A DNA stretch of 64,000 nt from a virus (lineage: Duplodnaviria > Caudoviricetes): the IMG/VR virus record IMGVR_UViG_3300021400_001148, positions 128,001 to 192,000 of that record; one strand, given 5' to 3'. A program made the translations under genes and the position numbers. Below the pieces are notes generated by a model. It did no database searches. It worked only from the letters and a program-made list of their open reading frames with translations, and was not told the origin of the DNA. Of the stretch, positions 500 through 22,033 are shown piece after piece (position 1 is the stretch's first letter; every line of letters starts with the position of its first letter).

Positions 500-572
500 A
501 TTCTGTTCCTTTTGTTTACACTACAAAGATAACGATTTTTCTTGACTTGGAAACCTATTCGGCGCAGGCGTG

Positions 573-731
573 CTATACATAGATTCCCATTTCTTCGAGT
601 TCTTCGATTGCGTCCTCCGGTACGAAATAGGAGCAGTCATCCCCAAACTCAATACCGAGGTTATCCATTTCTTCTTCTTCGAGGTCCATAAGAACCTGGC
701 TCTGAGGCCAATTGACTTTGATGTATCCCAT
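573..731 (-). CDS. small acidic hypothetical protein (YxxVxWP..Q.LM family), 52 aa
   Basis: True start MGYIKVNWPQSQ lies after the promoter at 756; similar to 7898..8074. Confidence 0.75.
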   Translation of the reverse strand: MGYIKVNWPQSQVLMDLEEEEMDNLGIEFGDDCSYFVPEDAIEELEEMGIYV

Positions 732-831
732 ATTCTTTTCCTTTTTGTTACATTGCAAAGATACTATCATTTTTTGATTTGCTGGTGGGTGTGGCGCAAT
801 GACGGCAGCCGGCCTTGCGCCTAAGAAAAAA

Positions 832-854
832 GTTGCGGTAAAAAATACCGCAAC
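832..854 (-). terminator. Intrinsic terminator (example of the hairpin plus U-tract preceding most palindromes)
   Basis: GTTGCGGTA/TACCGCAAC inverted repeat; the adjacent plus-strand A-tract gives a U-tail on the minus strand. Confidence 0.8.
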
Positions 855-861
855 CGCCAGC

Positions 862-1437
862 CTATTTCTTAATGTTCTTGGCTTTTTTCCGTAGCGAATC
901 AAAGTCGGTGTAAATAGCCTCTCCGTTGGAAAAACGGGCGGTGCAAACATATTCTCTGAAACCATACCCTTTTTTGATTCGGTTAATGATGCCGTTGGCA
1001 ATTTTTTCTTCTTCGTCCCGCAAGGCCTCTTCAAGGATATCGAAAGCCTTTTCCAGTTGGTATTCATAATCCTCGGATGTTACTTTGCATCCCCTGAAAC
1101 ATTTGTTGATTAGCCTTGTTGATGCGTAAGGAAAATAGTAGTGAACATCATCTATCAGTTCCTTGCGGTTGTGATTACGGAAATAGTATGCGCTGCCCAG
1201 CACATCGGTAAGACTTTCGGCATCGATGGCGTCAATACACGCATCCATGTAGTAGCCAGGAGTGAAAACAACCTTTATAAGGCGCAGTCCTTCATCTTCG
1301 GATTCTTTAATCTCGGTCGAAGGATAAGAACGACTTCCATCATTCCATTTGCCGAGTTCGGGGTAGTTTCCATATTCATAGTCATCGTTGGTAACTACAA
1401 CGCATCTTCTTTGGTATGAAAAATTTGGGGCACTCAT
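862..1437 (-). CDS. hypothetical protein
   Basis: Start corrected to MSAPNF, downstream of promoter 1466. Confidence 0.8.
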   Translation of the reverse strand: MSAPNFSYQRRCVVVTNDDYEYGNYPELGKWNDGSRSYPSTEIKESEDEGLRLIKVVFTPGYYMDACIDAIDAESLTDVLGSAYYFRNHNRKELIDDVHYYFPYASTRLINKCFRGCKVTSEDYEYQLEKAFDILEEALRDEEEKIANGIINRIKKGYGFREYVCTARFSNGEAIYTDFDSLRKKAKNIKK

Positions 1438-1568
1438 TGCTTTTTGTTCTTTCTGTTTTGCAATACAAATATAGTAAATCCTGTACAAAACCCAGTAAAT
1501 TCAGCGCAAAGCCGGCTGCCAATCTTGCGCCTAAAAAAGAAAACCCCGCATCAGCAGGGGTTCTTCTA

Positions 1569-2288
1569 TTATTCATCGGCATCCTCAAACTTCGTGTTTC
1601 CGATTTTGAGTCTGACCATCTCCCTTACTCGGTCATACCACATTGCCGTGATGTTTCGAATTTCTCCCTCCGTGTCCTCCACGACAACGCCAATTTCTTC
1701 AGAGCCATTGTAGGCGAGAGCTGCCTTTTCAATGCCACTGGCAATATCGTTCCAATCGGGATTTTCGCAGTCGATAGAGGTAACCATTTTGGCTGACTGA
1801 AGCAATGCTTCAAAGGAATCCACATCTTCGAGCTTGTCATATGGAATATCGAATCCGTCTGCGGTGATTGCAAATTCTTCGGTGAGATATTTGATTTGCA
1901 GGTTTAATCGGGCAGTAGGCCCCTGAACCCCATAGATATCTTCAAGTGTTTCATACATCCCCGTGATGGGAATCTCAATTGGTTTGTGCCCGTCACCGCC
2001 ACCCACATGATGTCCTTTGACAATTTCCATCAGTTGCCGGTAGACATCATCAATATCTTCCTCGGTTTCCACCGCGGAAATATCCTCTCCGTCCCCGTTG
2101 AGAAAAGTGGGCTCCTCGATGTCATCATCGTGGTATTCGTAAATTTCGTATTCACCCTCAAGGTATCCACTGCGGTCCATAAAAGTCTTGCAGTCTTCCT
2201 CGGTGGGGAAAACCATAAAGGAGGCGATTTCCTCTGGAATGTCCTTTGTGTTGATAAGTTCCGGCTGATAATAGGTTTTTCCTTTCAT
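1569..2288 (-). CDS. acidic hypothetical protein
   Basis: Start corrected to MKGKTYY, downstream of promoter 2314. Confidence 0.8.
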   Translation of the reverse strand: MKGKTYYQPELINTKDIPEEIASFMVFPTEEDCKTFMDRSGYLEGEYEIYEYHDDDIEEPTFLNGDGEDISAVETEEDIDDVYRQLMEIVKGHHVGGGDGHKPIEIPITGMYETLEDIYGVQGPTARLNLQIKYLTEEFAITADGFDIPYDKLEDVDSFEALLQSAKMVTSIDCENPDWNDIASGIEKAALAYNGSEEIGVVVEDTEGEIRNITAMWYDRVREMVRLKIGNTKFEDADE

Positions 2289-2487
2289 ATTCTTGTTCTC
2301 TTTTGTTACAATACAAAGATAGCAACATAAAATCGTACTCATCCGAGTACGGCGCAATGCGGGCTGCCAATCTTGCGCCTAAAAGAAAAAATGCCGGGAA
2401 AGGCCATTTTTAGGCGATTTCCGGCACTTTAAGAAAAAAGATGATGTGGAACACCACTTTAACCTTGCGGGGTTAATATAGGGGGTT

Positions 2488-2691
2488 TTATTCGTCTTTC
2501 CAGCCAGTCCACTCATTGGTCATGTCCTCATAGGTATCCGCGTCCTCTATGGATACCATTTCCACGAAGTCGAAACCAATGTCTTCGGTATCATCGGGAA
2601 CAGGCATCTGTTTGTGCCATTTGTTCTTGATGTCAGTCATGTCGTCACCCTCTATAAAGGCTTCAACGCGATATGTAAGTCTGATTTTCAT
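2488..2691 (-). CDS. hypothetical protein
   Basis: Third gene of a tightly packed unit. Confidence 0.7.
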   Translation of the reverse strand: MKIRLTYRVEAFIEGDDMTDIKNKWHKQMPVPDDTEDIGFDFVEMVSIEDADTYEDMTNEWTGWKDE

Positions 2692-2694
2692 AAT

Positions 2695-2853
2695 TTAGTC
2701 CTCCTCCGGCCATTCAATTTCAGCCATTCCTCTATATGTTTCGTATTCGGTGAGTTTACCCCCGTCTTCAATTGCTGTGGCAAGTTCACGAAGAAACTCC
2801 GCAGTATAATAGAGGTCGGTAGTGATTTTGAGTGTTACTTGTTTCTCTTCCAT
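2695..2853 (-). CDS. small hypothetical protein, 52 aa (not in ORF track)
   Basis: MEEKQVTLKITTDLYYTAEFLRELATAIEDGG...EED; fills the gap between neighbours. Confidence 0.7.
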   Translation of the reverse strand: MEEKQVTLKITTDLYYTAEFLRELATAIEDGGKLTEYETYRGMAEIEWPEED

Positions 2854-2860
2854 ATCTTTA

Positions 2861-3154
2861 TTATTTGAGATTGGAGATATAGTGCTCCTCTATCCAATTG
2901 GCAAGAGCCTTTTTGTTCTGAGTGTCGAGGTCGCACCAAAAATGTGCGATGCTGGCTGCTGAATCATCATAGGCGTTGGCAAATAGTTTCCACTTGCTCA
3001 CCATGTGGTCAAAGTTGGTTGTCCACTCGGTTTCAATAAGGAAAACCGGAAGCGCGTCCGTCCTTTCGTCACCGAACATAGTCTTCCAAGTATGCATACG
3101 CATCTTGTAGTTCATTGCGAAGTTCAACAGAATTACATCAATAATCTTTTTCAT
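2861..3154 (-). CDS. hypothetical protein
   Basis: Follows promoter 3179. Confidence 0.8.
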   Translation of the reverse strand: MKKIIDVILLNFAMNYKMRMHTWKTMFGDERTDALPVFLIETEWTTNFDHMVSKWKLFANAYDDSAASIAHFWCDLDTQNKKALANWIEEHYISNLK

Positions 3155-3276
3155 ATCTTTGTCTTTTTGTTTACATTACAAAGATAGCAAAAACTTGTAT
3201 GCACCCAGCAGGTTAGGCGCAGTCTCGGCAGCCCACTTTGCGCCTAAAAAATCACCGCAGTTTCCCGCGGTGGTTT

Positions 3277-3438
3277 CTAAATCATTTCAACCCTTGTCAC
3301 CAGGCCTTTCAGTGGATAGCAACCGATTCTTTTCATATCGGAGATGAAATTCTTTTGCCAATCTTCGGCCTTTTCCTTGCTGTCAAATTCGTAGCAGGTG
3401 TTCACCACTCCGTCCACTATAGTCTTGAATACCCACAT
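3277..3438 (-). CDS. small hypothetical protein
   Basis: Start corrected to MWVFKTIV, just after the stop of the upstream gene. Confidence 0.65.
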   Translation of the reverse strand: MWVFKTIVDGVVNTCYEFDSKEKAEDWQKNFISDMKRIGCYPLKGLVTRVEMI

Positions 3439-3442
3439 ATCC

Positions 3443-3844
3443 CTAAAATTTTTCAGAGAGTTCCTCGATTTCTGCCCAAGAAAAGAGTTCTTCCATTTTC
3501 CGCAGGCTGTTGTGGCAACCATTGAAGGCTCTCCGCGCGGTAGCCATTTCCTCGTCTCCGTAGCCAAACTCGTTGGCAAATTCCCAGAAAAGCGGATTGT
3601 TCTTCGCTGCATAGCAGTCACTGACGATACAACCTATAGCATCCTCAATCAGAGACGGGCTGACGCGTCCGAGGCGGTAGTTGTAAACTGAATCGTGGAA
3701 AGTGAACTTTCTTTCAACCCCGCGGATGTTGATGATAATATAATAAGACTGATGCCAATCGCCAAGCAGGTCTTTGGTCACTTTGTTTTTGCGTGTTGAG
3801 ACTTTGAAAATTGTTCCGTCCGCAAGTGTGTAGTTCTTTGTCAT
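3443..3844 (-). CDS. hypothetical protein
   Basis: Start corrected to MTKNYTL after promoter 3866. Confidence 0.8.
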   Translation of the reverse strand: MTKNYTLADGTIFKVSTRKNKVTKDLLGDWHQSYYIIINIRGVERKFTFHDSVYNYRLGRVSPSLIEDAIGCIVSDCYAAKNNPLFWEFANEFGYGDEEMATARRAFNGCHNSLRKMEELFSWAEIEELSEKF

Positions 3845-4030
3845 GTTCTTGTTCCTTTTGTATAACAAAGATAATAAAAAAAGACGAAAGGATGACGGGC
3901 AAGGCGCAACCGCGGCAGCCTGCCTTGCGCCCATAAAAAAACCACGGGGTCTATCGTTTCGGTGGGTCGAAAATACCGCCTCTTAAAACCTACTGTGCTC
4001 GCCCGTGGATTGCAACAAAGATATGAAAAC

Positions 4031-4222
4031 TTAGTCTTCTTCGTTTCTGAGTTTCTGTATGTAAATTGCCTTGAGTTTCTTCTCCCTCTTCACAACGGAA
4101 GGCTTCTTGAATTCCTGCCGTTCCCTCTGTTCCTTTATGAGTTTGGTGTTGTTACATTTCCTCTTGAAAATCTTGAGGTATTTCTCAATTTTATCCGATT
4201 CTTCTACTGGCACTCTTAGCAT
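4031..4222 (-). CDS. rpsU: ribosomal protein bS21 (phage-encoded)
   Basis: MLRVPVEESDKIEKYLKIFKRKCNNTKLIKEQRERQEFKKPSVVKR matches the bS21 signature (L++FKRK...+E.R.R..F.KPS..+R); 63 aa, basic. Confidence 0.92.
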   Translation of the reverse strand: MLRVPVEESDKIEKYLKIFKRKCNNTKLIKEQRERQEFKKPSVVKREKKLKAIYIQKLRNEED

Positions 4223-4528
4223 TTTCGTGTTGTTTTCTTTCTTATTTTTTTTAGCCACCCATCCCCGCACCGCCCGGGGAGTTCTCTCAGATAAGGAGAG
4301 CGGTCTCACTTTACCAGCCAACTATTTCAGACTGGCCTTTAATCCTAATGGGTAATAGCCGTCCGCTTTATTTATACTCGAGCAGACGGTCGAGTGGGGA
4401 GAAACCAAGGGCAGGGCACCGAGCACACCAACATAGTTTGTGGTTTACAGCCGTCTTTAAGCCAAGGCCCGTGGTTTCGTATCACAAATATACAAAAACT
4501 TTCGTAATTTATAAATAGTTCGGTGCAA

Positions 4529-4693
4529 TTATTCCTCGTACAACTCGTCATTGAAGAGGACATATCCGAGAGCCTGCAGGACAGTATCCGCCTCATCACT
4601 TTCAATGCCGTTGTCTATGAGAACTTTTTCAGCCTTTTCAATATCTTCGGGGTAAAGTGTTGCCCGAACCACTACTTTTTCTCTTGGTGTCAT
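4529..4693 (-). CDS. small hypothetical protein, 54 aa (not in ORF track)
   Basis: MTPREKVVVRATLYPEDIEKAEKVLIDNG...; follows promoter 4714. Confidence 0.7.
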   Translation of the reverse strand: MTPREKVVVRATLYPEDIEKAEKVLIDNGIESDEADTVLQALGYVLFNDELYEE

Positions 4694-4816
4694 ATCGTTT
4701 CCTTTTTGTATAACAAAGATAATAATTCTAGTTCCAAACTTTGTAGGTACGGCGCAAAGTCGGCAGCCACCCTTGCGCCTAAAAAGAAAATGGTACTCAG
4801 TTGAGTACCACCCTCT

Positions 4817-5602
4817 TTAGAAATTCTCTATGATAGAGACACTGCATCCACCATTTTTTCGAGTGTCGGGCGTTTTGTACATCTTGAGAACAACGCTTGT
4901 CTCATACCCAAGCAATGCCGTGCTCTTGAGAAAGTTCACCACATTCTTTTCATATTTGTTGAGAGCGTCTCTCTCCATAGTCACTTTGTCAGTGTCGGTA
5001 AACTTCACGACCTGATTTTTTCGGAAATCCTCCACCACCTCTTCCTTGCTCTTGAGGTAGTCGGCAACAAACTGCGAGATTTCGGAAAAGTAATAGGTAA
5101 TTGTTTCTTCCCCGTATTTCCAATACCCCGATGGAAGTGGATAGCATTCCCTTACAGTGAATGTGCATGGCTCATCGTAGTAGACCGAGAGTGATTCAAT
5201 GAAGACGAAAAACTTGTCAAGCTGCCCGTCAGTAAAACGATAACTTATCACAGAACTACCGAACCAACCAAGTCCAGGAGAAAGAACCACCTGCCCGAAG
5301 ATTTCCTTGATAGGCTGCTGAAAATAGTATGCAATATTTACCTGCCCATCGCCGGTCGCAAGGCATTCGGGGGTTACAAAAAGATAGGGTATTGAGTATG
5401 TGTCACTCCATAATGTTATTTGTCCAAGGCCAGCCACATTGGCCAGAACTTCTACCGAACCTATTTCCGGTCTTGTCTCCAGCTCGGGATGAAGAGTGAA
5501 CCCGAGAATCTTAGCTTCGCGGACTACATTATCAGTACCTCTGTAGTAGAAAATCTGCTTGTTCAGAATGTTGTTGAGTGCATCGTAGTTGATAGTGTCC
5601 AT
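4817..5602 (-). CDS. hypothetical protein
   Basis: 261 aa ORF following promoter 5627. Confidence 0.85.
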   Translation of the reverse strand: MDTINYDALNNILNKQIFYYRGTDNVVREAKILGFTLHPELETRPEIGSVEVLANVAGLGQITLWSDTYSIPYLFVTPECLATGDGQVNIAYYFQQPIKEIFGQVVLSPGLGWFGSSVISYRFTDGQLDKFFVFIESLSVYYDEPCTFTVRECYPLPSGYWKYGEETITYYFSEISQFVADYLKSKEEVVEDFRKNQVVKFTDTDKVTMERDALNKYEKNVVNFLKSTALLGYETSVVLKMYKTPDTRKNGGCSVSIIENF

Positions 5603-5719
5603 ATCTTTGTTCTTTTGTTTACATCACAAAAGTAGTGAATTTTTTTCAGAACTTCACTTGTTAGGCGCAGCGGGGGCAGCCTGCCTTGCGCCTAAAAGAA
5701 AAACCCGCAGGTGCGGGCT

Positions 5720-5968
5720 TTACTTTGCAAACCTCGGAACAAAGAAATCTTCCAATTTGTAAGTATTTCGGTTGAGGTGTCTGTTGATTCCCGTAACATC
5801 ATGCAGGAAATCAATCGTGTCAGCCTTGAGCAGTTCATCCCACTTCATTCCGTAACCGCTTTCAGCAAGGACAAGCAAGTCCATGAAAATTGTAGTCCTG
5901 TCCCAATCTGGGAGATACCCCATCGCCCTTTTGACGATTTCGTTGATGGTTTTAATAGTCTCTTTCAT
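5720..5968 (-). CDS. conserved small phage protein (DUF6874-like)
   Basis: Motif MDL...LL.AD..DF.HDV.GI.RHLNR.T..L...F.PRFA recognised from memory. Confidence 0.6.
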   Translation of the reverse strand: MKETIKTINEIVKRAMGYLPDWDRTTIFMDLLVLAESGYGMKWDELLKADTIDFLHDVTGINRHLNRNTYKLEDFFVPRFAK

Positions 5969-5974
5969 AATTTT

Positions 5975-6430
5975 TTAGATTACGCCCCCGGGGAAAGCCA
6001 TACGGTGATTGACTTCCCTACCGTTCTCCGGCCCGGTCTTGATGAGGTAGGCGTTGAAACAGCCGTCAAAATATTTGTGGCCGAACTTGATGCCGTTGAC
6101 CTCAAAGCCCCTGTCACTACCGAACTTCTCGTAGATTTCGTCTCTGGTCAACTCGGTATTGGCTCCAGACTGTCTCCACTTCTCGTACATTGCACCCTCG
6201 TACTGTTCAAGTTCCTTGGCGTTGCCCTTGGGGAAAGTGTACCTCCAATCCTCAACGCGGTAACCGTCTGATTCACGCACGCCGTAGATGCGGACACTCT
6301 CCAGATAACCCCACTTGGAGTAATCCCATATATAACCCAGACGCTTGAGGTAAGCGAGGCCCTTCTTGTTAATGACTTCTCCCACAGGGAGGCTCTCAAA
6401 ATACTTCTGAATCTGTGTCTTTGTTTTCAT
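5975..6430 (-). CDS. hypothetical protein
   Basis: Start corrected to MKTKTQIQ after promoter 6450. Confidence 0.8.
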   Translation of the reverse strand: MKTKTQIQKYFESLPVGEVINKKGLAYLKRLGYIWDYSKWGYLESVRIYGVRESDGYRVEDWRYTFPKGNAKELEQYEGAMYEKWRQSGANTELTRDEIYEKFGSDRGFEVNGIKFGHKYFDGCFNAYLIKTGPENGREVNHRMAFPGGVI

Positions 6431-6603
6431 ATCCGTTCCTTTTACATTACAAATATAGTTAATGTTTTTCATTGACTGTCCGTTTTGGCGCAACGGGGGC
6501 AGCCGGCTTTGCGCCAAAAAGAAAATAGGTAGCCCCACTCCCAAAGGATGTACAAACCCCGGGGGAATAGGACTATCCTGTTGTAGTCTTTTTTTTTCGA
6601 GAT

Positions 6604-6798: not shown

Positions 6799-6822
6799 GG
6801 CTTTATTCGTTAATGGTTTTGT

Positions 6823-7065: not shown

Positions 7066-7182
7066 ATCTCTTTTGCTTTTATCTACTGCAAATATAGGTA
7101 TTTTATTTCATTTCAGTGCAGGTACGGCGCAGCATCGGCAGCCACCCTTGCGCTTAAAAAGAAATGGGGCGAACCCCATTCT

Positions 7183-7446: not shown

Positions 7447-7447
7447 A

Positions 7448-7777: not shown

Positions 7778-7897
7778 TTTGTTTCCTTTTGTATAACAAA
7801 GATAGTAAAATATCCTCACCACTTGTCGGGTAAGGCGCAACATCGGCTGCCAGTCCTGCGCTTAAAAGAAAATGGTACTCAGTTGAGTACCACTCTC

Positions 7898-8074: not shown

Positions 8075-8077
8075 ATC

Positions 8078-8617: not shown

Positions 8618-8741
8618 ACCTTTGTTCTTTTGTTTGCATTACAAATATAGTAAAAGTTTCCCTTATTTCTTGGATGTGGGCGCAACCGCGGCAGCCTGCC
8701 TTGCGCCCAAAAAGAAATCCGCCAAACGGGGCGGACTTCTG

Positions 8742-9308: not shown

Positions 9309-9412
9309 GATGTTTTTCCTTTTGACAATACAAATATAGTGTGTTTCCGTCAGATTTCGGCTTGCACGGCGCAGCATCGGCAGCCGACCTTGCGCCTAAA
9401 AAAAAAGAGGCA

Positions 9413-9865: not shown

Positions 9866-10115
9866 AGTCTTTATCTTTTTCTCAAAACAAATATAATGAA
9901 AAGATTTCTGCCTGTTGGTGATTAAGCGCAGTACCGGCAGCCACCCTTGCGCCTAAAAGAAAACCCCCGGGGCGGTCGCAACACTCGCTCCGAGGTACAT
10001 ACAACCTCCGCCGTTTTCGTGGTGGTTAGGGAACATTTTGCGAATTTCCTTAATCCAGCCCAGCATCTTAGATTGTTTTCGCGGACTTATGCAATCATCC
10101 GTTTTTATTTCTTCC

Positions 10116-10558: not shown

Positions 10559-10660
10559 GTCATTTCCTTTTGACATTACAAATATAGCGAAAAACTCTGA
10601 ATTTTCGGCTGGTCAGGCGCAAAACCGGCAGCCAGCCTTGCGCCAAAAAAAAAGAGGAGA

Positions 10661-11209
10661 TTACTCCCCTCTTGCCTTTACCATATTTTCTTCATGCCGT
10701 CGCTCGTCCTGCAGGTCATTCACAAAATCCTTGCGTTCCGCCTTGTTGCGTTTTTCATTGGCTTTGAGGACAGCGTTTCGGTTGCCTGCGATACGAATCC
10801 AACAGTAAATTGTGCCGCGTTTCTCGACCTCGTAGGTAATTACATTGGTATTGTCCGCCCGAAGCTCAGCCGTTCCGCTTGTAAATGTCCAATTGGTAAA
10901 GTCCTTTGTGTATTCATCTTCACCGCTGGCACGCGAGGTACGACTTTCCGCGTAGGTCTCCGTCTTGGCCGTGATTCTTTTCACAAACTCACCGCGGAGG
11001 TCATTTTCGAGTTCGGCCTGTTTGCTCCTGCGGACGATGTCGGAAGCACCCACGGGGTAAGTTGTGTAACCCTCAACAAAGACAACATTCTTGTCCTTGA
11101 CTTCCTCGAAAGGAGAACCGATTTTGTTGGGCTGGAGAGAGAAATCCTTGATGGTTCCGCAAGACACCGCAAGCAGAACAAAAACCATGATTGTAAATAA
11201 CTTCTTCAT
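10661..11209 (-). CDS. predicted lipoprotein
   Basis: Corrected start MKKLFTIMVFVLLAVSC = signal peptide II with lipobox Cys. Confidence 0.75.
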   Translation of the reverse strand: MKKLFTIMVFVLLAVSCGTIKDFSLQPNKIGSPFEEVKDKNVVFVEGYTTYPVGASDIVRRSKQAELENDLRGEFVKRITAKTETYAESRTSRASGEDEYTKDFTNWTFTSGTAELRADNTNVITYEVEKRGTIYCWIRIAGNRNAVLKANEKRNKAERKDFVNDLQDERRHEENMVKARGE

Positions 11210-11310
11210 ATTCGTTCCTTTTTCTATTACAAATATAGTGATAATTTTTGATAGTCTTGGGGTTTCGGCGCAAAGTCGGCAGCCACCCTTGCGCCCAAAA
11301 AAGAAAACCT

Positions 11311-11586: not shown

Positions 11587-11587
11587 A

Positions 11588-12085: not shown

Positions 12086-12229
12086 CTTTTTCCCTTTCGT
12101 TACTACAAAGATAATAAAATAAAATCATATTCGTTTGGGTACAGCGCAATGCCGGCAGCCGCCTTCGCGCCAAAAGAAAAGGGGCGGCACCCCAGCGGCC
12201 ACCCCATTGAAACCGTACTCACTTGAGTA

Positions 12230-12667
12230 CTATATGCCGAGCAACTGCCCCATCAGCATAAGTCCTTCAACGGCCTTGACATCCTCCTCGCTGTTCATCA
12301 CGATGTTGGAGTTTGCCAGCATCTCCTTCTGACGCGGGCTGCAGGCGTCATGGATTTTCTTGAAATTCTGGAACATGGCTTCAGCCTTTTCACTTTCAGC
12401 CTTTGCCTTGCGGTCAATCAGCTGGGCGTAAACCTCACCCTGAAGGTCTTTGGGAAGTTTGGCGATGGCTTTCTTGAGAGCAGATTCGTAGTCGAATCTC
12501 TGCCAGTCGCGACCGCACCATGACACCTTGCTGTCACTCATGTTGTGGGTAATACAGCGGACTGTCTCACAGTAACCCATACGGGTGTCGGTAGACCAAG
12601 CTTTGAAAATAACGAGTTCACCGTTGACATTAGCCTCGAAACGGCTCTGATTGTATACTTTTGCCAT
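12230..12667 (-). CDS. hypothetical protein
   Basis: 145 aa, second gene in its unit. Confidence 0.8.
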   Translation of the reverse strand: MAKVYNQSRFEANVNGELVIFKAWSTDTRMGYCETVRCITHNMSDSKVSWCGRDWQRFDYESALKKAIAKLPKDLQGEVYAQLIDRKAKAESEKAEAMFQNFKKIHDACSPRQKEMLANSNIVMNSEEDVKAVEGLMLMGQLLGI

Positions 12668-12678
12668 AGTCGTAAGAA

Positions 12679-12942
12679 TTAGCGGTTTAACATATCTTTG
12701 AGTTCCTTGAGTCCGTTGACAATCTCAACTTCAGCGGTGTAAACACCCTTGACTGAATCCCACACGCGTCTTGTAACCTCAACCTTTTCGATTACCCCAT
12801 CCCCGTTGATTCGCAGGGAAATGATTGGCCTGTTACCTTTTGACCAGTCTTCGAGGTGAGCCAACCCCATCCCAGGCACTTCGTTGGTCTTCCTATAGCC
12901 AGCTGCCTTGAGGTTCCTTTTTGCACTTTCGTAGTTAATCAT
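12679..12942 (-). CDS. hypothetical protein
   Basis: Start corrected to MINYES. Confidence 0.75.
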   Translation of the reverse strand: MINYESAKRNLKAAGYRKTNEVPGMGLAHLEDWSKGNRPIISLRINGDGVIEKVEVTRRVWDSVKGVYTAEVEIVNGLKELKDMLNR

Positions 12943-13034
12943 ATCTTTTCCTTTTGACATTACAAATATACCACAATTTTATTATAAATTTGTGGCATAG
13001 GCGCAACCACGGCAGCCTTCCTTGCGCCCAAAAG

Positions 13035-13335: not shown

Positions 13336-13401
13336 ATTACAAATATACTACATTTTGTTTTTGTTTTGTCAGTTCCGGCGCAACGCACGCCCCTCCCACT
13401 T

Positions 13402-13710
13402 TTATACACTAATTTTAATCATGTCGGGAAGTCCGTTGGCAGAGTAGCCCCACCACTGCCTGCTGACCTTGAACCCCTCGGAGGTAAGGAATTTGATAAG
13501 GGCGGGGAACTTTTTGTTATCAAAAATTCCTACCTTGCAACCCTCGGCAGACGATGTACCACAAAGGGAATCAATGCAGACATATCCAATCCTCTTGATG
13601 CCTGCGGCTATCGTGGAAAGAATCTCATCTTTCCTCGGCATAATCTCGTTGTCAATAATCTGCTGGTCAGTGTTGGCCATTTCGGCTTTGAGTGTTTCTG
13701 CGTAGTTCAT
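13402..13710 (-). CDS. hypothetical protein
   Basis: Start corrected to MNYAETL. Confidence 0.8.
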   Translation of the reverse strand: MNYAETLKAEMANTDQQIIDNEIMPRKDEILSTIAAGIKRIGYVCIDSLCGTSSAEGCKVGIFDNKKFPALIKFLTSEGFKVSRQWWGYSANGLPDMIKISV

Positions 13711-13868
13711 ATCTTTGTCCTTTTGTTTACATAACAAAGATAGTGAAATTATTTGAAAACATACCAACCAAGGCGCAACCGCGGCAGCCGCTTTTGCGCC
13801 AAAAAGAAAAGGGGGCACCGGTCACACCAACATAGTTGGGTTTACAGCCGAATTTAAGCCCCTTGTTT

Positions 13869-14105: not shown

Positions 14106-14178
14106 AGTTGTTCTCGTTTGTTTCTATACAAATGTAACGAAAACATTTGAAAGCCTTTCAGCTTCGGCGCAGCAGAGG

Positions 14179-14415: not shown

Positions 14416-14421
14416 ATCCGT

Positions 14422-14655: not shown

Positions 14656-14838
14656 AACCTTTTCTTTTTGTATTACAAATGTAATGATTTAGAATGTAAA
14701 TCTCGGGAGTGAGGCGCAAAGGCGGCTGCCAGCCTTGCGCTTAAAGGAAAACCCCGGGGTTGCTCATGTCCCGGGGATTGTTAGAGGATTTGCTGAAGAT
14801 AACCCCACTCTTGGGAACCTTGTCGGTTTATTCAAATC

Positions 14839-15120: not shown

Positions 15121-15254
15121 AGTGTTGTGTTTTTCTTACAGTACAAAGATAGTAAGATAAAGTCGTACTCATCCGAGTACGGCGCAGTGCCGGCAGCCGC
15201 CTTTGCGCTTAAAAAGAAAAGGGGATTTCTCCCCTCTCTCAAATCTCTCAAAAG

Positions 15255-15416: not shown

Positions 15417-15418
15417 TC

Positions 15419-15796: not shown

Positions 15797-15914
15797 ATTC
15801 GTTTCCTTTTTACAATACAAATATAATGAAAAACTTTCCGTTGCTGGTGAATTTGGCGCAAAGCCGGCAGCCAGCCTTGCGCCTAAAAAGAAAAGGGGAT
15901 TTCTCCCCCTTTCG

Positions 15915-16223: not shown

Positions 16224-16526
16224 ATCTTCTTGTTTTCTGATTACATTACAAAGATACAACATTTTCTTTAGTGTGCTGTAGGTTGGGCGCAACGGGGGCA
16301 GCCGCCTTTGCGCCTAAAAAGAAACGGAATGGTGTCCCACTCCGTTTCCACATATAGCCGTCTTCGAGCGGTTTTACCTCTACCTCATTACCCCAAAAGG
16401 TAAGCCCGGTGTTAGATTCGGCATTTATGTTTGCAACGAATTGCCCTCGTTGCCAGAGCCCAACCTCGTTTCCCTCCCTCGGTCGGCATTGGGCGCGGTC
16501 AGCTACTCCGCCTTCAGTTCTCTTTT

Positions 16527-16688
16527 TTACAAATGTGGCAAAATCTTTTCATCAAAGATAAGGCAGTTGAATACCCCGATGATTGAGAGGATAAGGTATC
16601 CCATATCACTTCGCCATTTCAGTGCTACGAATACAATCGGCAGGATTATCACCGCATACCCCAATATTCTTTTTGCTTTTGTGCTCAT
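16527..16688 (-). CDS. small two-helix membrane protein, 53 aa (not in ORF track)
   Basis: MSTKAKRILGYAVIILPIVFVALKWRSDMGYLILSIIGVFNCLIF...; follows promoter 16709. Confidence 0.65.
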   Translation of the reverse strand: MSTKAKRILGYAVIILPIVFVALKWRSDMGYLILSIIGVFNCLIFDEKILPHL

Positions 16689-16807
16689 ATCATTTCCTTT
16701 TGACATTACAAATATAATACAATTATCGCAAATGCTGTCAGTTTCGGCGCAGCATCGGCAGCCGCCTTAGCGCCCAAAGGAAAACCCTCGCTCGGAGGGT
16801 TGCCCAA

Positions 16808-17605
16808 TCAGTAGATTTTTTCCTGATACTTCACTCGCCCCGTAGGGGTTTTGATAGTGATTTCTATGTACTTCCGCTTTTCGCCCTCGCACTCCACTTC
16901 GTAGTATTCGGAGTGTTTGCGTTCAAAGTCATCTATGTAGTTCTCCTCGCCCCTCTTGACTGAGATAGTGTCCTTGCTACCCCTTGCCTTGCGGAGTTCT
17001 TCAAGTATCCTTGCACACTTGTTCGGCTTGTTGTCAAGGAAACACCTCTCGCCATACTCGTCCCAAAGCCTTCCCCTCTTGCCACCCATAGCCGCGGAGA
17101 AGAGTTCATAGTTTCCGAGCGGCTTGTTGTACCCACCGAAGTTGGGGCCAGCCAGCGCGTACTTGTTGAGGTAGTTCTGCAAGGCCTTGTACTCCTTGCA
17201 AGGGGCATCTGCAAGGCAGACCTTTGCGATGTACTTCAACTTGTAGGTACACCAATAGGAAACCCCATTGTTGTACTCTATGGTATCTTCGACCACAGAC
17301 AGACCGCTCCACCCCTTTGTTTTCTTCAGCTGGTCAAACATCTTGCCGAGTTCGCAGAACACTTCGGAAATATCGGTGCGAGTTTTTACACTGCCCATTT
17401 CCTTGTTGTTCATCTTGATGGTGTAGGAATCGGTGTACCTCTTCCCATCTTTGTCCCACTTATCATTATCCCACACTGCGAAGTCCACCATTTGGCTCTT
17501 CCTGCTCCAAGAACCGAGAGGGAGACCTTTGTTAGACTTGCGTGTGCTTGCAAGGGCGGTCTTTGCCGCCTTGAAAATCTTTTCTGCCAATGTCTTGTTG
17601 TCCAT
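16808..17605 (-). CDS. basic hypothetical protein
   Basis: 265 aa, follows promoter 17630. Confidence 0.85.
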   Translation of the reverse strand: MDNKTLAEKIFKAAKTALASTRKSNKGLPLGSWSRKSQMVDFAVWDNDKWDKDGKRYTDSYTIKMNNKEMGSVKTRTDISEVFCELGKMFDQLKKTKGWSGLSVVEDTIEYNNGVSYWCTYKLKYIAKVCLADAPCKEYKALQNYLNKYALAGPNFGGYNKPLGNYELFSAAMGGKRGRLWDEYGERCFLDNKPNKCARILEELRKARGSKDTISVKRGEENYIDDFERKHSEYYEVECEGEKRKYIEITIKTPTGRVKYQEKIY

Positions 17606-17727
17606 ACCTTTGTGCTTTTGTTTACATTACAAAGATACACATTTCTCCGCAAGGCCGGTGTCCGGTGGCGCGGACGGGGCAGCCATCATCGCGCCGAGAA
17701 GAAAACCCTCACTTGGAGGGTTCGCTT

Positions 17728-18165
17728 TTACTGCTCAGCCTGAGCCTTTTCGTACTCCTTTGCAAGGTCAAGGAGGAAACTGAACACATCAGCCGCGTTC
17801 TCCCAACCTCCGTCAAGGACATCACACCACGCGCCATCACAAAGCCACTTCGGAGATTTTTTGTCTTCGGGGTCATAGTTCGGATTCTTGTAATAAACAA
17901 AACTCTCGAACCAATTGTTATTGTCCACATACACGCGTTCATCGTTCCATGCCTTTCCATTGTGGAAAAGTTCCACAAGTTCTTCGGGAAACTGTGAGGA
18001 CGCTCTATAGGATTCGTCATTGAAAACCACACGGACATCTCCTGCAACCCTGATAGAAACATAAAGACCGTCAGTTTCAAGGCTGGCAACTTCCTGACCG
18101 CTGTCGAGTTCCATTGAATCGTTTACACCGAGAAGAAAATCGGCTACTGAAAAATCGTATTTCAT
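17728..18165 (-). CDS. hypothetical protein
   Basis: Start corrected to MKYDFSV. Confidence 0.8.
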   Translation of the reverse strand: MKYDFSVADFLLGVNDSMELDSGQEVASLETDGLYVSIRVAGDVRVVFNDESYRASSQFPEELVELFHNGKAWNDERVYVDNNNWFESFVYYKNPNYDPEDKKSPKWLCDGAWCDVLDGGWENAADVFSFLLDLAKEYEKAQAEQ

Positions 18166-18359
18166 ATCTTTGTTTCTTGGTTTATACAAATATAGTAATA
18201 AAATCCCAGACCTACTCCACCAAGGCGCAGCATCGGCAGCCGACCTTGCGCCAAAAAAGAAACGGAATGGCGTCCCACTCCGTTTCAGAAAAAGTCGGCT
18301 TCGAGCGGTTTTATCTCTACCTCATTACCCCAAAGGGCAAGCCCGGTGTCAAGCTTCGA

Positions 18360-18680
18360 CTATATTTCAAACATATCCCTGACCATACTCTCAAGGTCTT
18401 TCGCTGTTTTAACACCCCTCCGCCTGAACTCCTCATTCAACTGCCTTGTGGTTACATACTTTGAGCAAGCGTAATATTCAGACGGATAGGATACTTCAAT
18501 CACCCTGAAAGTGCCTGTCTTCCAATCGTAGTCACATTCCCCCTCCCATGTGGCGTCTCCCGTACAGAAAGGATATGCACTGGAGCGTAAAGCAACTACC
18601 TCTGCGTGTGCTTTGAAACCCAATTTCTTTGCAGTATCGTTGATGAACTTTGCGAAAACTTTGCTAACTTGTACTTTCAT
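18360..18680 (-). CDS. hypothetical protein
   Basis: Start corrected to MKVQVSK. Confidence 0.8.
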   Translation of the reverse strand: MKVQVSKVFAKFINDTAKKLGFKAHAEVVALRSSAYPFCTGDATWEGECDYDWKTGTFRVIEVSYPSEYYACSKYVTTRQLNEEFRRRGVKTAKDLESMVRDMFEI

Positions 18681-18817
18681 AGTGTGTTCCCTTGTTTGCA
18701 TTACAAATATAGCCAATTTCTTTGAAAGGGCGGTCTTGTCTGGCGCAGCGGGGGCAGCCTGCCTTGCGCCTGAAAGAAAACCCCGAGAGCAATGCCCCCG
18801 GGGGAAACCAAAAAACA

Positions 18818-19114
18818 TCAGTCGATATACCCGAGAAATCTCGTTTCATACACTCCCCAGCCATCGGCTATATACCAATCATGGGCTTTCTGCTCAGCCT
18901 CTTCCTCCGAGGAGGCCACGATGATTTCTTTTCTCGTTCTGCTTTCGTGATAGGGAAGCCCGAGGACAAAAAGTGTCGCTTCGTACTTTCCCGCCTTTGT
19001 CTCTGGCTCATAGGTAAGGCCGAGAAAATGCTTTGCAATTTCAAAGGTGTCTGCGTAGGGGTTTTCCTCAATGAATTTCCCCAGTTCTTTTTCAATAAAT
19101 CCGTCTCTTGACAT
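18818..19114 (-). CDS. hypothetical protein
   Basis: N-terminus resembles that of 8078..8617 (FIE.EL..F+..NP....IA.HFL.LT). Confidence 0.75.
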   Translation of the reverse strand: MSRDGFIEKELGKFIEENPYADTFEIAKHFLGLTYEPETKAGKYEATLFVLGLPYHESRTRKEIIVASSEEEAEQKAHDWYIADGWGVYETRFLGYID

Positions 19115-19138
19115 AGTGTATTGTGTTTTGGTGTTTGC

Positions 19139-19381
19139 CTATTTGAAAATCGCCCAAAAATCAAGTTTGCAGACCAGCTCATCAACCTTGTTGCCCACCC
19201 TTTGGGCGAGTTCCCAAGCACCCTCATCAACCACTCCGTTTTCATCCTCGAAAACCTCTCCATCCGCACACCAATCAACGAACCTTTCAGTTCCCTGCTC
19301 CAACTCAATGTCATTGTAGAGCATATTGGTAATCTGATTTGCGACTTTCTTGATTTGTTCCTTTGTGTAATGCTTAACCAT
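19139..19381 (-). CDS. hypothetical protein
   Basis: Start corrected to MVKHYTK. Confidence 0.75.
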   Translation of the reverse strand: MVKHYTKEQIKKVANQITNMLYNDIELEQGTERFVDWCADGEVFEDENGVVDEGAWELAQRVGNKVDELVCKLDFWAIFK

Positions 19382-19534
19382 AGTGTTTGTTCTTTTACAT
19401 AACAAAGATAAGAAAAATCTCTTCCAGACCAGCGGACAAGGCGCAGCATCGGCAGCCGACCTTGCGCCACAAAAAAAAACGGAGGGTATCTCACGACAGC
19501 CCCCGTTACCCCTTATCTAACCCTATCTAAAATC

Positions 19535-19927
19535 TTATTCTTCTTCGTGTTCGTGCATACGGACTTCTTCCTTGCCGAAAAAAGCCTGCTCGAAAGTGGT
19601 TTTGAGGTTCCGCCTTTCCCACTTGTCCTTGATGTTGTAGGTGTGGATTACAAGCGGCTCGCCTTTGAGGATACAGACCATAAAGTCAATTCCGAGGGTT
19701 TTTCTACCATATTCAACGGATTCAGCCATACCACAGGGCTTTCCCTGCTCTGCAAGGCACTCCGTAAACCTTTCAAGGAGGTCGGCGCCAGTTTTTCTTA
19801 CAGTGAGGTAGACATTCTCCCCCTTTTCATACTTTTCGTATGCCTTCGGGAAGTCGATGAAGAGGTCGCCACTGCAAGAGTGGATATAATTCGCACAAAT
19901 GTGGAATATGTTGCAGATGTATTTCAT
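19535..19927 (-). CDS. hypothetical protein
   Basis: Start corrected to MKYICN. Confidence 0.75.
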   Translation of the reverse strand: MKYICNIFHICANYIHSCSGDLFIDFPKAYEKYEKGENVYLTVRKTGADLLERFTECLAEQGKPCGMAESVEYGRKTLGIDFMVCILKGEPLVIHTYNIKDKWERRNLKTTFEQAFFGKEEVRMHEHEEE

Positions 19928-20080
19928 ATACCTTTCTTTTACATTACAAATATAAACAAATTTCTTCGTTGTTTGCTGTCTTTGGCGCAGCGTGGGCAGC
20001 CACCATTGCGCCCACAAGTGTTTCCCACCCGCCATCTTCTCTGATTTACCCAATGATAGCAGGTGGGATTTTTTTTTATT

Positions 20081-20476
20081 CTATATCAAATTTTCAAGAT
20101 TTTCAAGATAGTACTTTATCGCTGCTTCGCAGGCTTCTTCATATTCCAAGGATTCACACTGATGGTAATCATCTTCGCAAGGTTTAGATGTCATTGGCTT
20201 AACATATGCATACCATAAGTGCTCCCATTCTGTATCAATGGCAATGTTATGCACTTCCCTCAACCACTTCATTGCCATTTGAAGAGTAGGTGCAGTACAT
20301 TCAAAATAGTTTTTTGTTATATCATTGTAATTAGAATTACGAATACTATCATATCTATTTAACTTACACAAGTCACCATAAGGCATATAAACCATTGATG
20401 TGCTCCAATCAAACCCCTTTTCCTTCAGGAGTTTTGCCGTTTCAAAACTAATATAGTCTTCATTATTAAGCACCAT
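20081..20476 (-). CDS. conserved Bacteroidales-phage hypothetical protein
   Basis: EDYISFETAKLLKEKGF...APTLQMAMKWLRE...YEEA.EAAI motif; lower GC than neighbours. Confidence 0.8.
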   Translation of the reverse strand: MVLNNEDYISFETAKLLKEKGFDWSTSMVYMPYGDLCKLNRYDSIRNSNYNDITKNYFECTAPTLQMAMKWLREVHNIAIDTEWEHLWYAYVKPMTSKPCEDDYHQCESLEYEEACEAAIKYYLENLENLI

Positions 20477-20478
20477 AT

Positions 20479-20916
20479 TTATTCCTCCTTTTTTCTATTA
20501 AAATGAGTTGCTCCCCATTCAGCGAAGTAACGGGCGATATACGCATAGTCTTCGGGCTCTATATTGGTAGTATCAGCCACACTCGCATCGTGATATGTTT
20601 GCTCTATGATTTTCTCCAACTCCGCCCTTGCCGCCTCCGCCTCCAGCTGGCTTCCGTAAAGAAATTCTTGAACAGTAGGCCCTATATTACCCCAAGGCTC
20701 TAATTCTTTCCATTCCTTTTCAAGTTGCTCTTTCGGTGTTGTAGCAAGGTGGTGTTTAAGTTCTGCAACCAAATCCACCTCCGGCTGCTCCTGTTGGAGA
20801 GAGGTAGCAAATAAAAGAAGTTCATTAAGCCTTTTGTTAGCAACTCGGCTCTCTTTTAAGTCGATAAGCCTTTTTATCTCGGCTATCAGTTTTTCCGCGT
20901 CAATGTATTTAATCAT
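20479..20916 (-). CDS. hypothetical protein
   Basis: Start corrected to MIKYIDAEKL. Confidence 0.75.
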   Translation of the reverse strand: MIKYIDAEKLIAEIKRLIDLKESRVANKRLNELLLFATSLQQEQPEVDLVAELKHHLATTPKEQLEKEWKELEPWGNIGPTVQEFLYGSQLEAEAARAELEKIIEQTYHDASVADTTNIEPEDYAYIARYFAEWGATHFNRKKEE

Positions 20917-21079
20917 GACTATAATTTTTAATGTTGCACTACAAATATAAGAAAACAATCTCAAACCCTGTCAGCCAAGGCGCAACCGCGGCAGCCGCTT
21001 TTGCGCCAAAAAGAAAAGGGGGCACCGGTCACACCAACATAGTTGGGTTTACAGCCGAATTTAAGCCCCTTGTTATTTG

Positions 21080-21421
21080 TCAGATTTTACCGAACACCGC
21101 ACCCTTGACGAAGTTATAAACCTCTCTGATGGTTTTCTTGCTGAGGTTTTCCCAAGGCAGGAGCACAATGTTGTCGCTCTCGCCATCGTTGTCATCGATG
21201 ATGATGCCACCAGGGCAGACTTCGGCCATAAACGCACTTCCAATCATAACGGGGTGCGTTTCCATAAAGTCGTAGTCGAGTTTGGGCATATGGAGCATCT
21301 CTACCCTGCGGGCGGCCCTAAGCATAGCCTCAAAGAACCAATCGTTCTGGTCGGTCTTGAACGAATCGTTGTACTTTTCTACTACCGCAGCAATCTTGCG
21401 AATCATTTTCTTTGTTCTCAT
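21080..21421 (-). CDS. hypothetical protein
   Basis: Start corrected to MRTKKMI. Confidence 0.75.
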   Translation of the reverse strand: MRTKKMIRKIAAVVEKYNDSFKTDQNDWFFEAMLRAARRVEMLHMPKLDYDFMETHPVMIGSAFMAEVCPGGIIIDDNDGESDNIVLLPWENLSKKTIREVYNFVKGAVFGKI

Positions 21422-21570
21422 GTCTTGTTCTCGTTTGGTATTACAAAGATAAACAATTTTATTTCCACCCTGCGGGTTTCGGCGCAACGGGGGCAGCCGA
21501 CTTTGCGCCTACAACGAACCCCCGAGGACCGCTCCCCGGGGGACAACAACCAAAACACAAACTATGAGAG

Positions 21571-21948
21571 TTAAACAAACACTACATTCTCGTTTAATAT
21601 TTCCATAAAGTGGTCAAAGTCCGCAGGACCGACACCGACACTATTTCCGCCAAGCGAAAAACTTCCGTTTTCGGGAAAGGCCGACACCTCTTTGAGGGAA
21701 TTTTCAGCGATTTTCACACCATAAGCGAAAGTAAATGCTTTGTTGGACTTCACTTGTTTCCTCCACCCAATCTTCCTTACACGCCTATCGAAAAACTGTA
21801 TACCTTTCTTTTTTGCAAGCTCCTCATCAGCCTTTTCTTCTGCCGATGAAAGGTCCTTTGCGTCAATGTGAAAACACACACTTCCGTATTGTGGCCAGTT
21901 GTTTATTACAAACTTGCTTTGGCAAGTCACACTGAAAATCTTTGTCAT
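21571..21948 (-). CDS. hypothetical protein (first unit of the array in transcription order)
   Basis: Start corrected to MTKIFSV. Confidence 0.75.
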   Translation of the reverse strand: MTKIFSVTCQSKFVINNWPQYGSVCFHIDAKDLSSAEEKADEELAKKKGIQFFDRRVRKIGWRKQVKSNKAFTFAYGVKIAENSLKEVSAFPENGSFSLGGNSVGVGPADFDHFMEILNENVVFV

Positions 21949-22033
21949 ATCCCTTTCGTTTACATTACAAAGATACGAAAACATTTGAAGGGCCTTGCTG
22001 ATTGGGCGCAACCTCGGCAGCCACCTTTGCGCT

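Follow-up and report, generated by a model that had tools for sequence, protein, structure and literature searches.

The palindrome array and its transcription units

The DNA analysed here was a 64,000-nucleotide (nt) stretch, hereafter the window, of the IMG/VR record IMGVR_UViG_3300021400_001148 (Duplodnaviria; Caudoviricetes); the source was one 354,809-bp contig, classed in IMG/VR as a complete virus with direct terminal repeats and having a GC content of 41%, and the window covered its bases 128001 to 192000. The subject was a 26-kb array of small gene cassettes, all on the minus strand, which were headed by copies of a 29-bp palindrome (GGCGCA-N5-GGCWGCC-N5-TGCGCC) and a Bacteroidota-type -7 box (TAnnTTTG); the array extended 4.1 kb past the left edge of the window. 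Near-identical DNA was found in gut metagenomes of cattle (bovine), sheep, and goat, and the phage was a rumen phage. Three contigs with 97–98% identity to it were binned into RUG734, a rumen Bacteroidales metagenome-assembled genome (MAG) of 1.6 Mb; the host link consisted solely of this binning into an incomplete MAG, and the host was treated as putative. The array gave no megablast match to INPHARED phages. The features are listed below in window numbering, with negative positions lying left of the window edge and with the spacer denoting the distance from palindrome to -7 box.

1–22033 (-): window part of the array of 36 autonomous transcription units (whole array, -4123 to 22033)
793–821 (-): palindrome, no mismatch; -7 box at 756–763, spacer 29 bp
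1503–1531 (-): palindrome, one mismatch, core flipped (GGCAGCC on the sense strand); spacer 29 bp
2351–2379 (-): palindrome, exact, core flipped; spacer 29 bp
3216–3244 (-): palindrome, exact; spacer 29 bp; one N5 replaced in RUG734 and run X4
3903–3931 (-): palindrome, exact; spacer 29 bp
4751–4779 (-): palindrome, exact; spacer 29 bp; heads the unit with the bS21 homologue (4222–4031)
5664–5692 (-): palindrome, exact; spacer 29 bp
6487–6515 (-): palindrome, exact; spacer 29 bp
7126–7154 (-): palindrome, one mismatch; spacer 29 bp
7834–7862 (-): palindrome, one mismatch, core flipped; spacer 29 bp
8679–8707 (-): palindrome, exact; spacer 29 bp
9368–9396 (-): palindrome, exact; spacer 29 bp
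9925–9953 (-): palindrome, one mismatch; spacer 29 bp
10616–10644 (-): palindrome, exact; spacer 29 bp
11267–11295 (-): palindrome, exact; spacer 29 bp; RNA contig 10666–11208 stops 17 nt before the predicted start site
12143–12171 (-): palindrome, two mismatches; spacer 29 bp
13000–13028 (-): palindrome, exact; spacer 29 bp; RNA contig 12247–12948 in its unit
13772–13800 (-): palindrome, exact; spacer 29 bp; entered by RNA contig 13447–13781 over 10 nt
14713–14741 (-): palindrome, one mismatch, core flipped; spacer 29 bp
15181–15209 (-): palindrome, one mismatch; spacer 29 bp
15855–15883 (-): palindrome, exact; spacer 29 bp
16286–16314 (-): palindrome, exact; spacer 29 bp
16746–16774 (-): palindrome, one mismatch; distal half and upstream terminator differ in RUG734
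17667–17695 (-): palindrome, symmetric double change; heads cassette u08 (gene 17605–16808)
18224–18252 (-): palindrome, exact; spacer 29 bp
18742–18770 (-): palindrome, exact; spacer 30 bp; module duplicated in RUG734 and X4
19440–19468 (-): palindrome, exact; spacer 29 bp; base of upstream hairpin at 19510
19984–20012 (-): palindrome, exact; spacer 29 bp; upstream T-tract absent
20979–21007 (-): palindrome, exact; spacer 29 bp
21481–21509 (-): palindrome, exact; spacer 29 bp
22005–22033 (-): palindrome, one mismatch, first of the array; spacer 29 bp; no upstream gene or terminator
524–565 (-): internal promoter with proximal box only (GCGCC-N29-TATCTTTG)
13340–13381 (-): internal promoter with proximal box only
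14129–14170 (-): internal promoter with proximal box only
44742–44783 (-): dispersed single-box promoter outside the array (GCGCC-N29-TATATTTG); hairpin in the 29-nt spacer; precedes an open reading frame (ORF) of 358 amino acids (aa)

A preliminary description, made from the letters of the window, had reported 31 palindromes, a 29-bp gap to the -7 box broken only at 18742, and units running from terminator through palindrome and -7 box to small unrelated ORFs, and all three points were reproduced. The 31 palindromes were recovered at the same coordinates (793 to 22005) with ≤3 mismatches allowed, 21 being exact and 10 having one or two mismatches, compared with 0.00 in 100 shuffles; all window matches lay between 793 and 22033. 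When the scan was carried to the complete genome, the count rose to 36, all inside genome positions 123877–150033 and none elsewhere. The spacer measured 29 bp in 33 of these copies and 30 bp in two, while the last copy (-4123) had no box; 30 of the 31 window copies had 29 bp, with 30 bp at 18742. On the sense strand, the aligned modules read T-rich tract, GGCGCAAGGnnGGCTGCCGnnnTTGCGCC, 29 unconserved nt, TAYnTTTGTAATG, A-rich leader, and ATG after 15–28 nt. Palindrome positions 2–5, 12–14, 16–18, and 25–28 were invariant in all 36 copies, and the core was flipped in four.

Hairpins with a folding energy of -8 kcal/mol or lower, each with a T-rich tract, immediately adjoined 32/36 palindromes, and terminator-like sites numbered 45 vs 21.9 ± 4.6 in shuffles. 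The units were 431–995 bp long with one to four small ORFs each, amounting to 61 ORFs over 36 units; only a single pair of array ORFs displayed similarity (blastp E 5e-7), and Pfam matches were obtained for 4/60 (DUF6926, DUF6874, Ribosomal_S21, and SprT-like). Such an ORFan-rich block is typical of early or host-takeover genes. E. coli-type -35/-10 pairs were not enriched (32 vs 26.7 expected), the -33 TTTG element was present in only 1/38 array promoters, and no Rfam model matched window 1–23000 at the gathering score.

Three further features of the array region were recorded: (i) a 63-aa bS21 homologue at 4031–4222 (-) inside an array unit, 86% identical in the related phage contig L264 (see below); (ii) the product of 20081–20476 (-), which alone among the array proteins had paralogues in other parts of the genome (four, of 35–42% identity, near genome 28.2, 88.6, 110.1, and 113.2 kb), with runs X2 and X20 displaying high depth and many loose ends around 20250–20800, as if this part was shared with other elements; and (iii) about 530 bp of non-coding DNA at the array head (22034–22560), where minus-strand genes gave way to plus-strand ones, containing CCCTCCCTACA twice, GGGGTAGGGG(G)TCTTTTTC twice, and long C/G runs, which could be an origin or another cis site.

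A genome-wide class of GCGCC promoters

All TAnnTTTG boxes preceding an ORF were listed, and GCGCC-N(d)-TAnnTTTG was then counted across the genome for d = 15–44, giving 67 sites at d = 29, three at d = 30, and none or one at every other distance; a separate pattern tool likewise gave 67 GCGCC-N29-TAnnTTTG sites vs 0 for the reversed control. Thirty-five sites (34 at N29 and one at N30) lay outside the array and had the proximal arm alone, without palindrome. Nothing was common to them upstream of wTTGCGCC, their flanks were unrelated (some inside coding 3′ ends), and their 29-nt spacer often held the hairpin and T-tract (terminator) of the preceding gene. Three more single-box promoters were located within array units (524–565, 13340–13381, and 14129–14170). 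In total, about 70 promoters of the 355-kb phage carried the GCGCC box, and 36 array units were double-boxed. The 29-bp rule was a property of this genome-wide promoter class, namely of the proximal arm, and not of the palindrome; the fixed dyad-to-promoter distance noted in the preliminary description was real, but it belonged to an arm that also stood at 35 further promoters lacking the palindrome. Because the proximal arm alone was the element in those 35 promoters, the palindrome is a doubled form of the phage's general promoter box, wTTGCGCC, and not the basic unit.

This double-box structure was displayed most directly by L047, an ERZ842401 contig, in which one palindrome had 29 nt, TATCTTTG, a similar leader, and a gene on each side; one of the two flanking genes was 54% identical to an array gene of the phage studied here, and the palindrome lay between its two promoters with no terminator nearby. 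Because it was flanked on both sides by a promoter and a gene, the palindrome can be read as two inverted promoter boxes around a core, able in principle to drive both directions.

The ATG stood exactly 4 nt after TAnnTTTG at seven dispersed promoters (genome 13476, 17059, 47554, 51357, 54397, 68097, and 332656), which probably yield leaderless mRNAs, and on this ground the start site was predicted about 5 nt past TTTG. Counted from that predicted start, the GCGCC box would lie at about -46 to -42 and the palindrome at about -70 to -42, centred near -56, which refined the -40 to -70 first proposed. In Bacteroidota, about 19 bp usually separate the -33 and -7 elements, and going by this spacing the GCGCC box lay roughly one helical turn upstream of the usual -33 position. 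The genes behind single-box promoters included RlaP, RNA ligase, phosphoesterase (RNA-repair type), NADAR, P-loop kinase-like, and DUF2828 genes; the class was dense at 290–355 kb and 0–150 kb and nearly absent from 150–290 kb, and this gene content and location, together with the ORFans, bS21, and SprT-like genes of the array, fit a pre-late, non-structural class.

This geometry bore on a reading in which the phage's own sigma-70-family factor would bind the GCGCC box through region 4 and TAnnTTTG through region 2, with no separate activator. The phage encoded two such factors with both regions (248 aa at 337.2 kb and 339 aa at window 41686–42705) plus a weak third, and the box was phage-specific (see below), all of which would suit this reading. 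The 29-bp gap, in contrast, exceeded the Bacteroidota -33/-7 spacing by about 10 bp, and we know of no sigma-70-family promoter with an element gap as long. Sigma region 4 is anchored to the beta flap near -35; moreover, the palindrome and its bidirectional use in L047 better fit a symmetric binder, and a different motif, TATTTATA, was a more obvious target for a phage sigma factor. We regard recognition by a phage sigma factor as quite unlikely.

The motif TATTTATA, taken in the sense direction, had an ORF of ≥60 aa within 80 nt in 41/60 occurrences genome-wide, one example preceding the sigma gene at window 42705–42800. A TATATTTG promoter often followed it closely; TATTTATA is a candidate late promoter, which would give dual promoters.

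Profile searches of the complete genome returned no HTH_3, Sigma70_r4_2, or Sigma54_DBD match, and PF09158 (MotA C-terminal domain, MotCF) matched neither the phage genome nor any control genome. The one GerE match (16 bits) was spurious, sitting in an RmlD-like Rossmann-fold reductase. Pfam searches of 30 neighbours of the array and the sigma gene, together with genes downstream of promoters lacking the box, yielded only a weak WYL match (window 45407–46078) and a Mom/GNAT-like 564-aa protein (see below).

Array parts were present in two metatranscriptomes, X8 (the source sample) and X20 (sheep). The RNA and DNA run data were Logan contigs, restricted to the longest pieces, and contigs cannot show true ends; RNA depth per bin was uneven (0–13.8) and DNA depth flat, these values being contig-based and thus not used to rank genes. 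The listed RNA pieces spanned a whole palindrome in 0/16 cases vs 6.6 expected (a zero was reached in none of 5000 random trials), while the listed DNA pieces did so in 16/16. RNA contig 12247–12948 covered both genes of its unit and stopped 10 nt before the predicted start site, and RNA contigs of both studies stopped at 19510, the base of a terminator hairpin. Confinement of RNA contigs to single units was thereby weakly indicated.

The same data touched a reading of the palindrome as the operator of a repressor, shut-off factor, or insulator, in which a dimer or tetramer, bound right after each terminator, would silence the array at a set time, with adjacent sites (spaced about 700 bp) perhaps binding cooperatively or looping together, or would act as a roadblock to read-through. 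It would account for the absence of listed RNA contigs crossing a palindrome, for the abutment of the upstream terminator T-tract in 32/36 units, and for the restriction of the full palindrome to the array when single boxes suffice elsewhere. The site at -70 to -42, however, overlapped neither the -7 box nor the start site; the proximal arm was placed exactly like the single box of the 35 other promoters, pointing to a positive element; polymerase help would be expected where the -33 element was absent; and the L047 palindrome lay between two promoters with no terminator close by. We consider a repressor or insulator site unlikely.

Conservation, phage specificity, and cassette turnover

The sequence comparison was applied to ten orthologous palindrome copies of this genome and RUG734 (97–98% identical). 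Changes amounted to 2/190 in arms plus core, 9/290 in the 29-nt promoter spacer, 5/300 in box plus leader, and 26/100 in the N5 spacers (Fisher p = 3e-10 for N5 vs promoter spacer). The contig L264, a more distant relative with a homologue of the u08 protein at 56% protein identity, contained 25 palindromes in 20.8 kb with GCGC, GGCWGCC, and GCGC invariant; 23 of these copies had a spacer of 29 and one had 30, and the last one stood at the locus end. Core orientation in L264 was about equal both ways, and positions 1, 6, 24, and 29 were free to vary. The motif was therewith found in a related phage, as the preliminary description had proposed to look for, at about 56% protein identity, and these patterns indicate that selection acts on the dyad, set at a constant distance from a -7 box of host type.

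The symmetric double change at 17667 (GGCGCG...CGCGCC) was present as described, but it was poor evidence for selection on dyad symmetry, because positions 6 and 24 were complementary in just 6/25 L264 copies and template switching, in keeping with the inverted interior of one copy between strains, could make symmetric changes even where selection played no part. A hairpin or cruciform reading of the palindrome was rejected: the arms comprised only 4–6 bp around a 17-nt interior, and positions 6 and 24 did not covary in L264. As to a methylation site (GCGC, GCWGC), GCGC was only mildly depleted (0.67x), and GCAGC/GCTGC were not depleted.

The N5 changes, seen for instance at 793–821, 3216–3244, and 16286–16314, followed a pattern of their own. 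Among changed half-spacers, 10/11 equalled pentamers found at other copies (the 72 half-spacers comprised 36 different pentamers); at the locus at -483 (genome 127517–127545), the 17-nt interior was exactly inverted between strains; and run X4 displayed similar multi-base spacer replacement at 3222–3225 and 16304/16307. Exchange among copies, or template switching in the palindrome, is the simplest reading of these changes, although a small set of permitted pentamers would inflate the pentamer matches too. In another reading, the palindrome would have no sequence-specific function, the modules descending from a single ancestor and being kept alike by gene conversion (concerted evolution of PeSL-like repeats; for PeSLs, see below). 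The sharing of half-spacers, the inverted interior, and the duplication of modules upon cassette gain (see below) would agree with this; conversion, however, would homogenise whole tracts, while here arms and core were invariant and the N5 and 29-nt spacers differed in almost every copy. The single box also stood at the same distance in 35 promoters with unrelated flanks, and the motif persisted in L264 at the protein divergence given above. Concerted evolution without function is in our judgement very improbable.

The bipartite pattern was confined to phage DNA. RUG734 carried 11 palindromes and nine bipartite promoters, all on its three phage-derived contigs, and TGCGCC-N29-TAnnTTTG occurred 0–3 times per genome in 150 other genomes of the RUG734 family, the same as the reversed control. 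The palindrome pattern gave six singletons in IMG/VR (own record left out); among the matches listed from JGI/ENA metagenomes and the 120 listed from 185,579 species genomes, there were single hits besides RUG734 and four short ERZ842401 contigs. These scattered single hits, mostly in high-GC genomes, were taken as chance. The data support a phage-specific GCGCC box and palindrome over a host regulon: of the phage or host regulator proposed in the preliminary description, the phage side agreed with the distribution, and the host-regulon side did not. A borrowed host transcription factor, present at infection and switching on the array, would solve the timing of an immediate-early array and would go with the use of the host -7 box; no palindrome or bipartite promoter was present on non-phage RUG734 contigs, however, nor was there enrichment in the family genomes or anything beyond chance-like hits among the listed species-genome matches outside phage contigs, which leaves a host factor improbable.

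Cassette content varied between close relatives. In L196, a RUG734 contig, the u08 cassette (window about 16791–17727) was missing, with about 60 unrelated bases instead, and an extra cassette of about 430 bp was located between duplicate copies of the 18742 promoter-palindrome module. Bovine run X4 displayed both events, namely the u08 loss as a joint 16787->17739 enclosing 74 letters, and the duplication at the 18742 module as a read-back of 42 ('goes back 42') at 18783. At 16746, strain homology ended at about the core: the proximal half and promoter were the same, and the distal half and terminator differed. Other strain breakpoints lay at gene ends, terminators, or leaders, not in the core. 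L264 had 27 genes homologous to the array at 30–86% identity in a different order, and the u08 protein had >170 homologues, some on contigs of 314–364 kb. L261 and L262, found via the sigma factor (30–35% identity), had no GCGCC-N29 promoters and were too distant to help.

The preliminary description had also raised an integron-like cassette boundary, and this was not borne out: profile searches of the complete genome gave no Phage_integrase (PF00589) or Resolvase domain, i.e., no tyrosine or serine recombinase (control genomes gave matches for PF00589, likewise for Resolvase), and every cassette had its own promoter. The cassette behaviour matched modular shuffling of the promoter early stem-loop (PeSL) type, the closest known case, much better than it matched an integron. 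A site-specific recombination site of the loxP, dif, or attC type would nevertheless resemble the palindrome in outline (29 bp, two inverted arms, and a 7-bp core), and cassette gain, loss, and permutation, the breakpoint at or next to the core at 16746, and the interior inversion at -483 would all be in keeping with it. Apart from the missing recombinase and the promoter in every cassette, the remaining breakpoints fell at gene ends, terminators, and leaders, 36 active direct repeats would delete the array, and a 17-bp inversion is too short for synapsis; a recombination site is thus scarcely credible.

Besides this genome, the 362-kb contig of ERZ27256937 was of the palindrome type. Two sister phages from the rumen, L265 (314.6-kb contig of ERZ941413) and L263 (363.7-kb contig of ERZ920194), encoded homologues of 13 and three array proteins, respectively, in similar small-gene arrays. 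Many of their cassettes were headed by a sigma54-type promoter (TGGCACG-N4-TTGC, then TATA) and not by palindrome plus -7 box; TGGCA-N6/7-TTGC had 23 matches in 20.8 kb of L265 (1–20789) and five in L263 (1–20795), and an element GGGGTAGAAAAA / TTTTTCTACCCC recurred near their terminators. It appears unusual for ORFan cassettes of a phage to be headed by sigma54 promoters. The palindrome itself was rejected as a sigma54 (-24/-12) promoter: its sense strand read GG(12–13)-N11-GC(25–26) and not the GG-N10-GC of TGGCAC-N5-TTGC, and no Sigma54_DBD was found.

As to site composition of the phage at large, GATC was absent from all 354,809 bp (about 1000 by Markov expectation), and ACGT (0.17x), AGCT (0.31x), and CATG (0.45x) were also depleted genome-wide, which suggests strong restriction-site avoidance. 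Three DNA methyltransferases were encoded at window 28464–31603. The 564-aa protein mentioned above (genome 231207–232901, L291) had weak matches to zinc-finger (Rua1_C), REase-like, and GNAT/Mom-like profiles and is possibly a DNA-modification enzyme.

A double-box site compared with known systems

PeSLs, described in T4-type phages with about 50 repeats, combine a terminator hairpin with a strong host-type promoter and are concentrated among small ORFans. Their hairpin either precedes the promoter or separates its two elements, and where close relatives differ by indels or replacements, the differences stop at these modules (Arbiol et al. 2010, PMC2839356; Comeau et al. 2014, PMC4122927). 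Exchange between neighbouring PeSL modules also yields encapsidated mini-circles. The array resembled them in (i) the hairpin and T-tract at 32/36 palindromes, followed by TAnnTTTG after 35/36; (ii) its 61 ORFs in 26 kb, with Pfam matches in 4/60 and one similar pair; (iii) the u08 loss and the extra cassette at a duplicated module in RUG734 and X4, plus the 27 genes shuffled in L264; and (iv) the hairpin position, upstream in the array and inside the 29-nt spacer at dispersed promoters. It differed in using a Bacteroidota -7 box with a GC-rich box where T4-like PeSLs have E. coli sigma70 -35/-10 elements with an AT-rich upstream region, and the GC-rich box, placed rigidly 29 bp away and doubled into a palindrome with an invariant core, has no PeSL equivalent.

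At T4 middle promoters, the MotA box, the activator MotA, and AsiA bring about sigma appropriation. The comparison with T4 MotA, drawn in the preliminary description, was apt as an analogy: in both cases, the host downstream element is kept, the upstream sigma element is absent and a phage box stands at a fixed position instead, and dozens of promoters of a pre-late non-structural class are involved. The MotA box is located at -30, in the -35 place, whereas the GCGCC box lay at about -44, and we know of no palindromic version of the MotA box in T4. Dyads also serve as activator sites of phage late promoters, bound by Ogr/Delta of P2/P4, with the site TGT-N12-ACA at about -55, and by C and Mor of Mu. 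As in the reading preferred below, a small phage activator there binds a dyad centred between about -43 and -55, the upstream element is poor, and an operon set is switched on together; these systems differed in having 4–5 promoters vs about 70, no half-site class, no three-part 29-bp site, and an unrelated motif, and no such protein was found in this phage. With integrons, the array shared a long one-directional order of small unrelated genes, imperfect palindromes, and content varying between close relatives, but it lacked an integrase and a common Pc, each unit having its own promoter and terminator, and its palindrome was short and of fixed length with breakpoints mostly outside. The finding is a variation on PeSL cassettes and activator-box phage promoters. 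The palindrome motif was not found in the literature, which was searched mostly by topic and once by the sequence itself.

Our preferred reading, to which we give somewhat better than an even chance, is that a phage-specified activator or sigma adaptor binds the palindrome as a double-box site and helps host RNA polymerase with sigmaA at -7-only promoters. A phage-specified DNA-binding protein, made early or delivered with the virion, would recognise the GCGCC box, binding as a monomer on single boxes and in dimeric or higher oligomeric form on the palindrome; it would recruit or stabilise host RNA polymerase-sigmaA where the -7 box stands alone, and one co-regulated pre-late gene class would result. 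The terminator-palindrome-promoter module also serves as a portable repeated joint, with cassettes gained, lost, and reordered by ordinary recombination, as for T4 PeSLs. Protein binding, activation rather than repression, timing, and the phage origin of the factor are what we infer here.

Several points weigh against this activator reading: (i) whole-genome profile searches assigned no DNA-binding protein to the box, which extended to the complete genome the earlier observation that no cognate regulator was evident in the window; (ii) should the array be immediate-early, an activator made by the phage would come too late unless packaged in the virion; (iii) single-box promoters do not explain the core and distal arm in one-directional units; (iv) the N5 spacers changed about eight times faster than adjacent non-coding DNA, a rate not expected from a simple binding-site model; and (v) start sites were predicted and the RNA data were contigs, one of which (13447–13781) ran 51 nt beyond the predicted start and into the palindrome.

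Taken jointly, a picture in which about 70 pre-late promoters are run by the phage's own GCGCC-reading factor, the double box works independently of orientation, and sister phages have swapped to a sigma54-type code is tentative and, as a whole, less than probable. Bacteroidota hosts have an unusual sigmaA with -33/-7 promoters; to our knowledge, transcription control in Bacteroidota phages has been little studied, and we know of no activator-box system like T4 MotA for them. If true, the picture would represent a Bacteroidota parallel to sigma appropriation in T4, though with its own geometry, cassettes could plug in on either side of the palindromic double box, and the promoter class would be a swappable lineage-level trait of the cassette array, with sister phages having the same ORFan pool. 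The roughly 70 natural, rigid two-part promoters, in single-box, double-box, and bidirectional forms, constitute a ready-made mutational series, and their two-part design gives a clear handle for finding the factor; palindrome-type and sigma54-type relatives with the same gene pool could show the rewiring of a whole gene class. The array extends the PeSL idea, i.e., regulatory modules as gene-shuffling joints, from T4-like coliphages to giant rumen phages.

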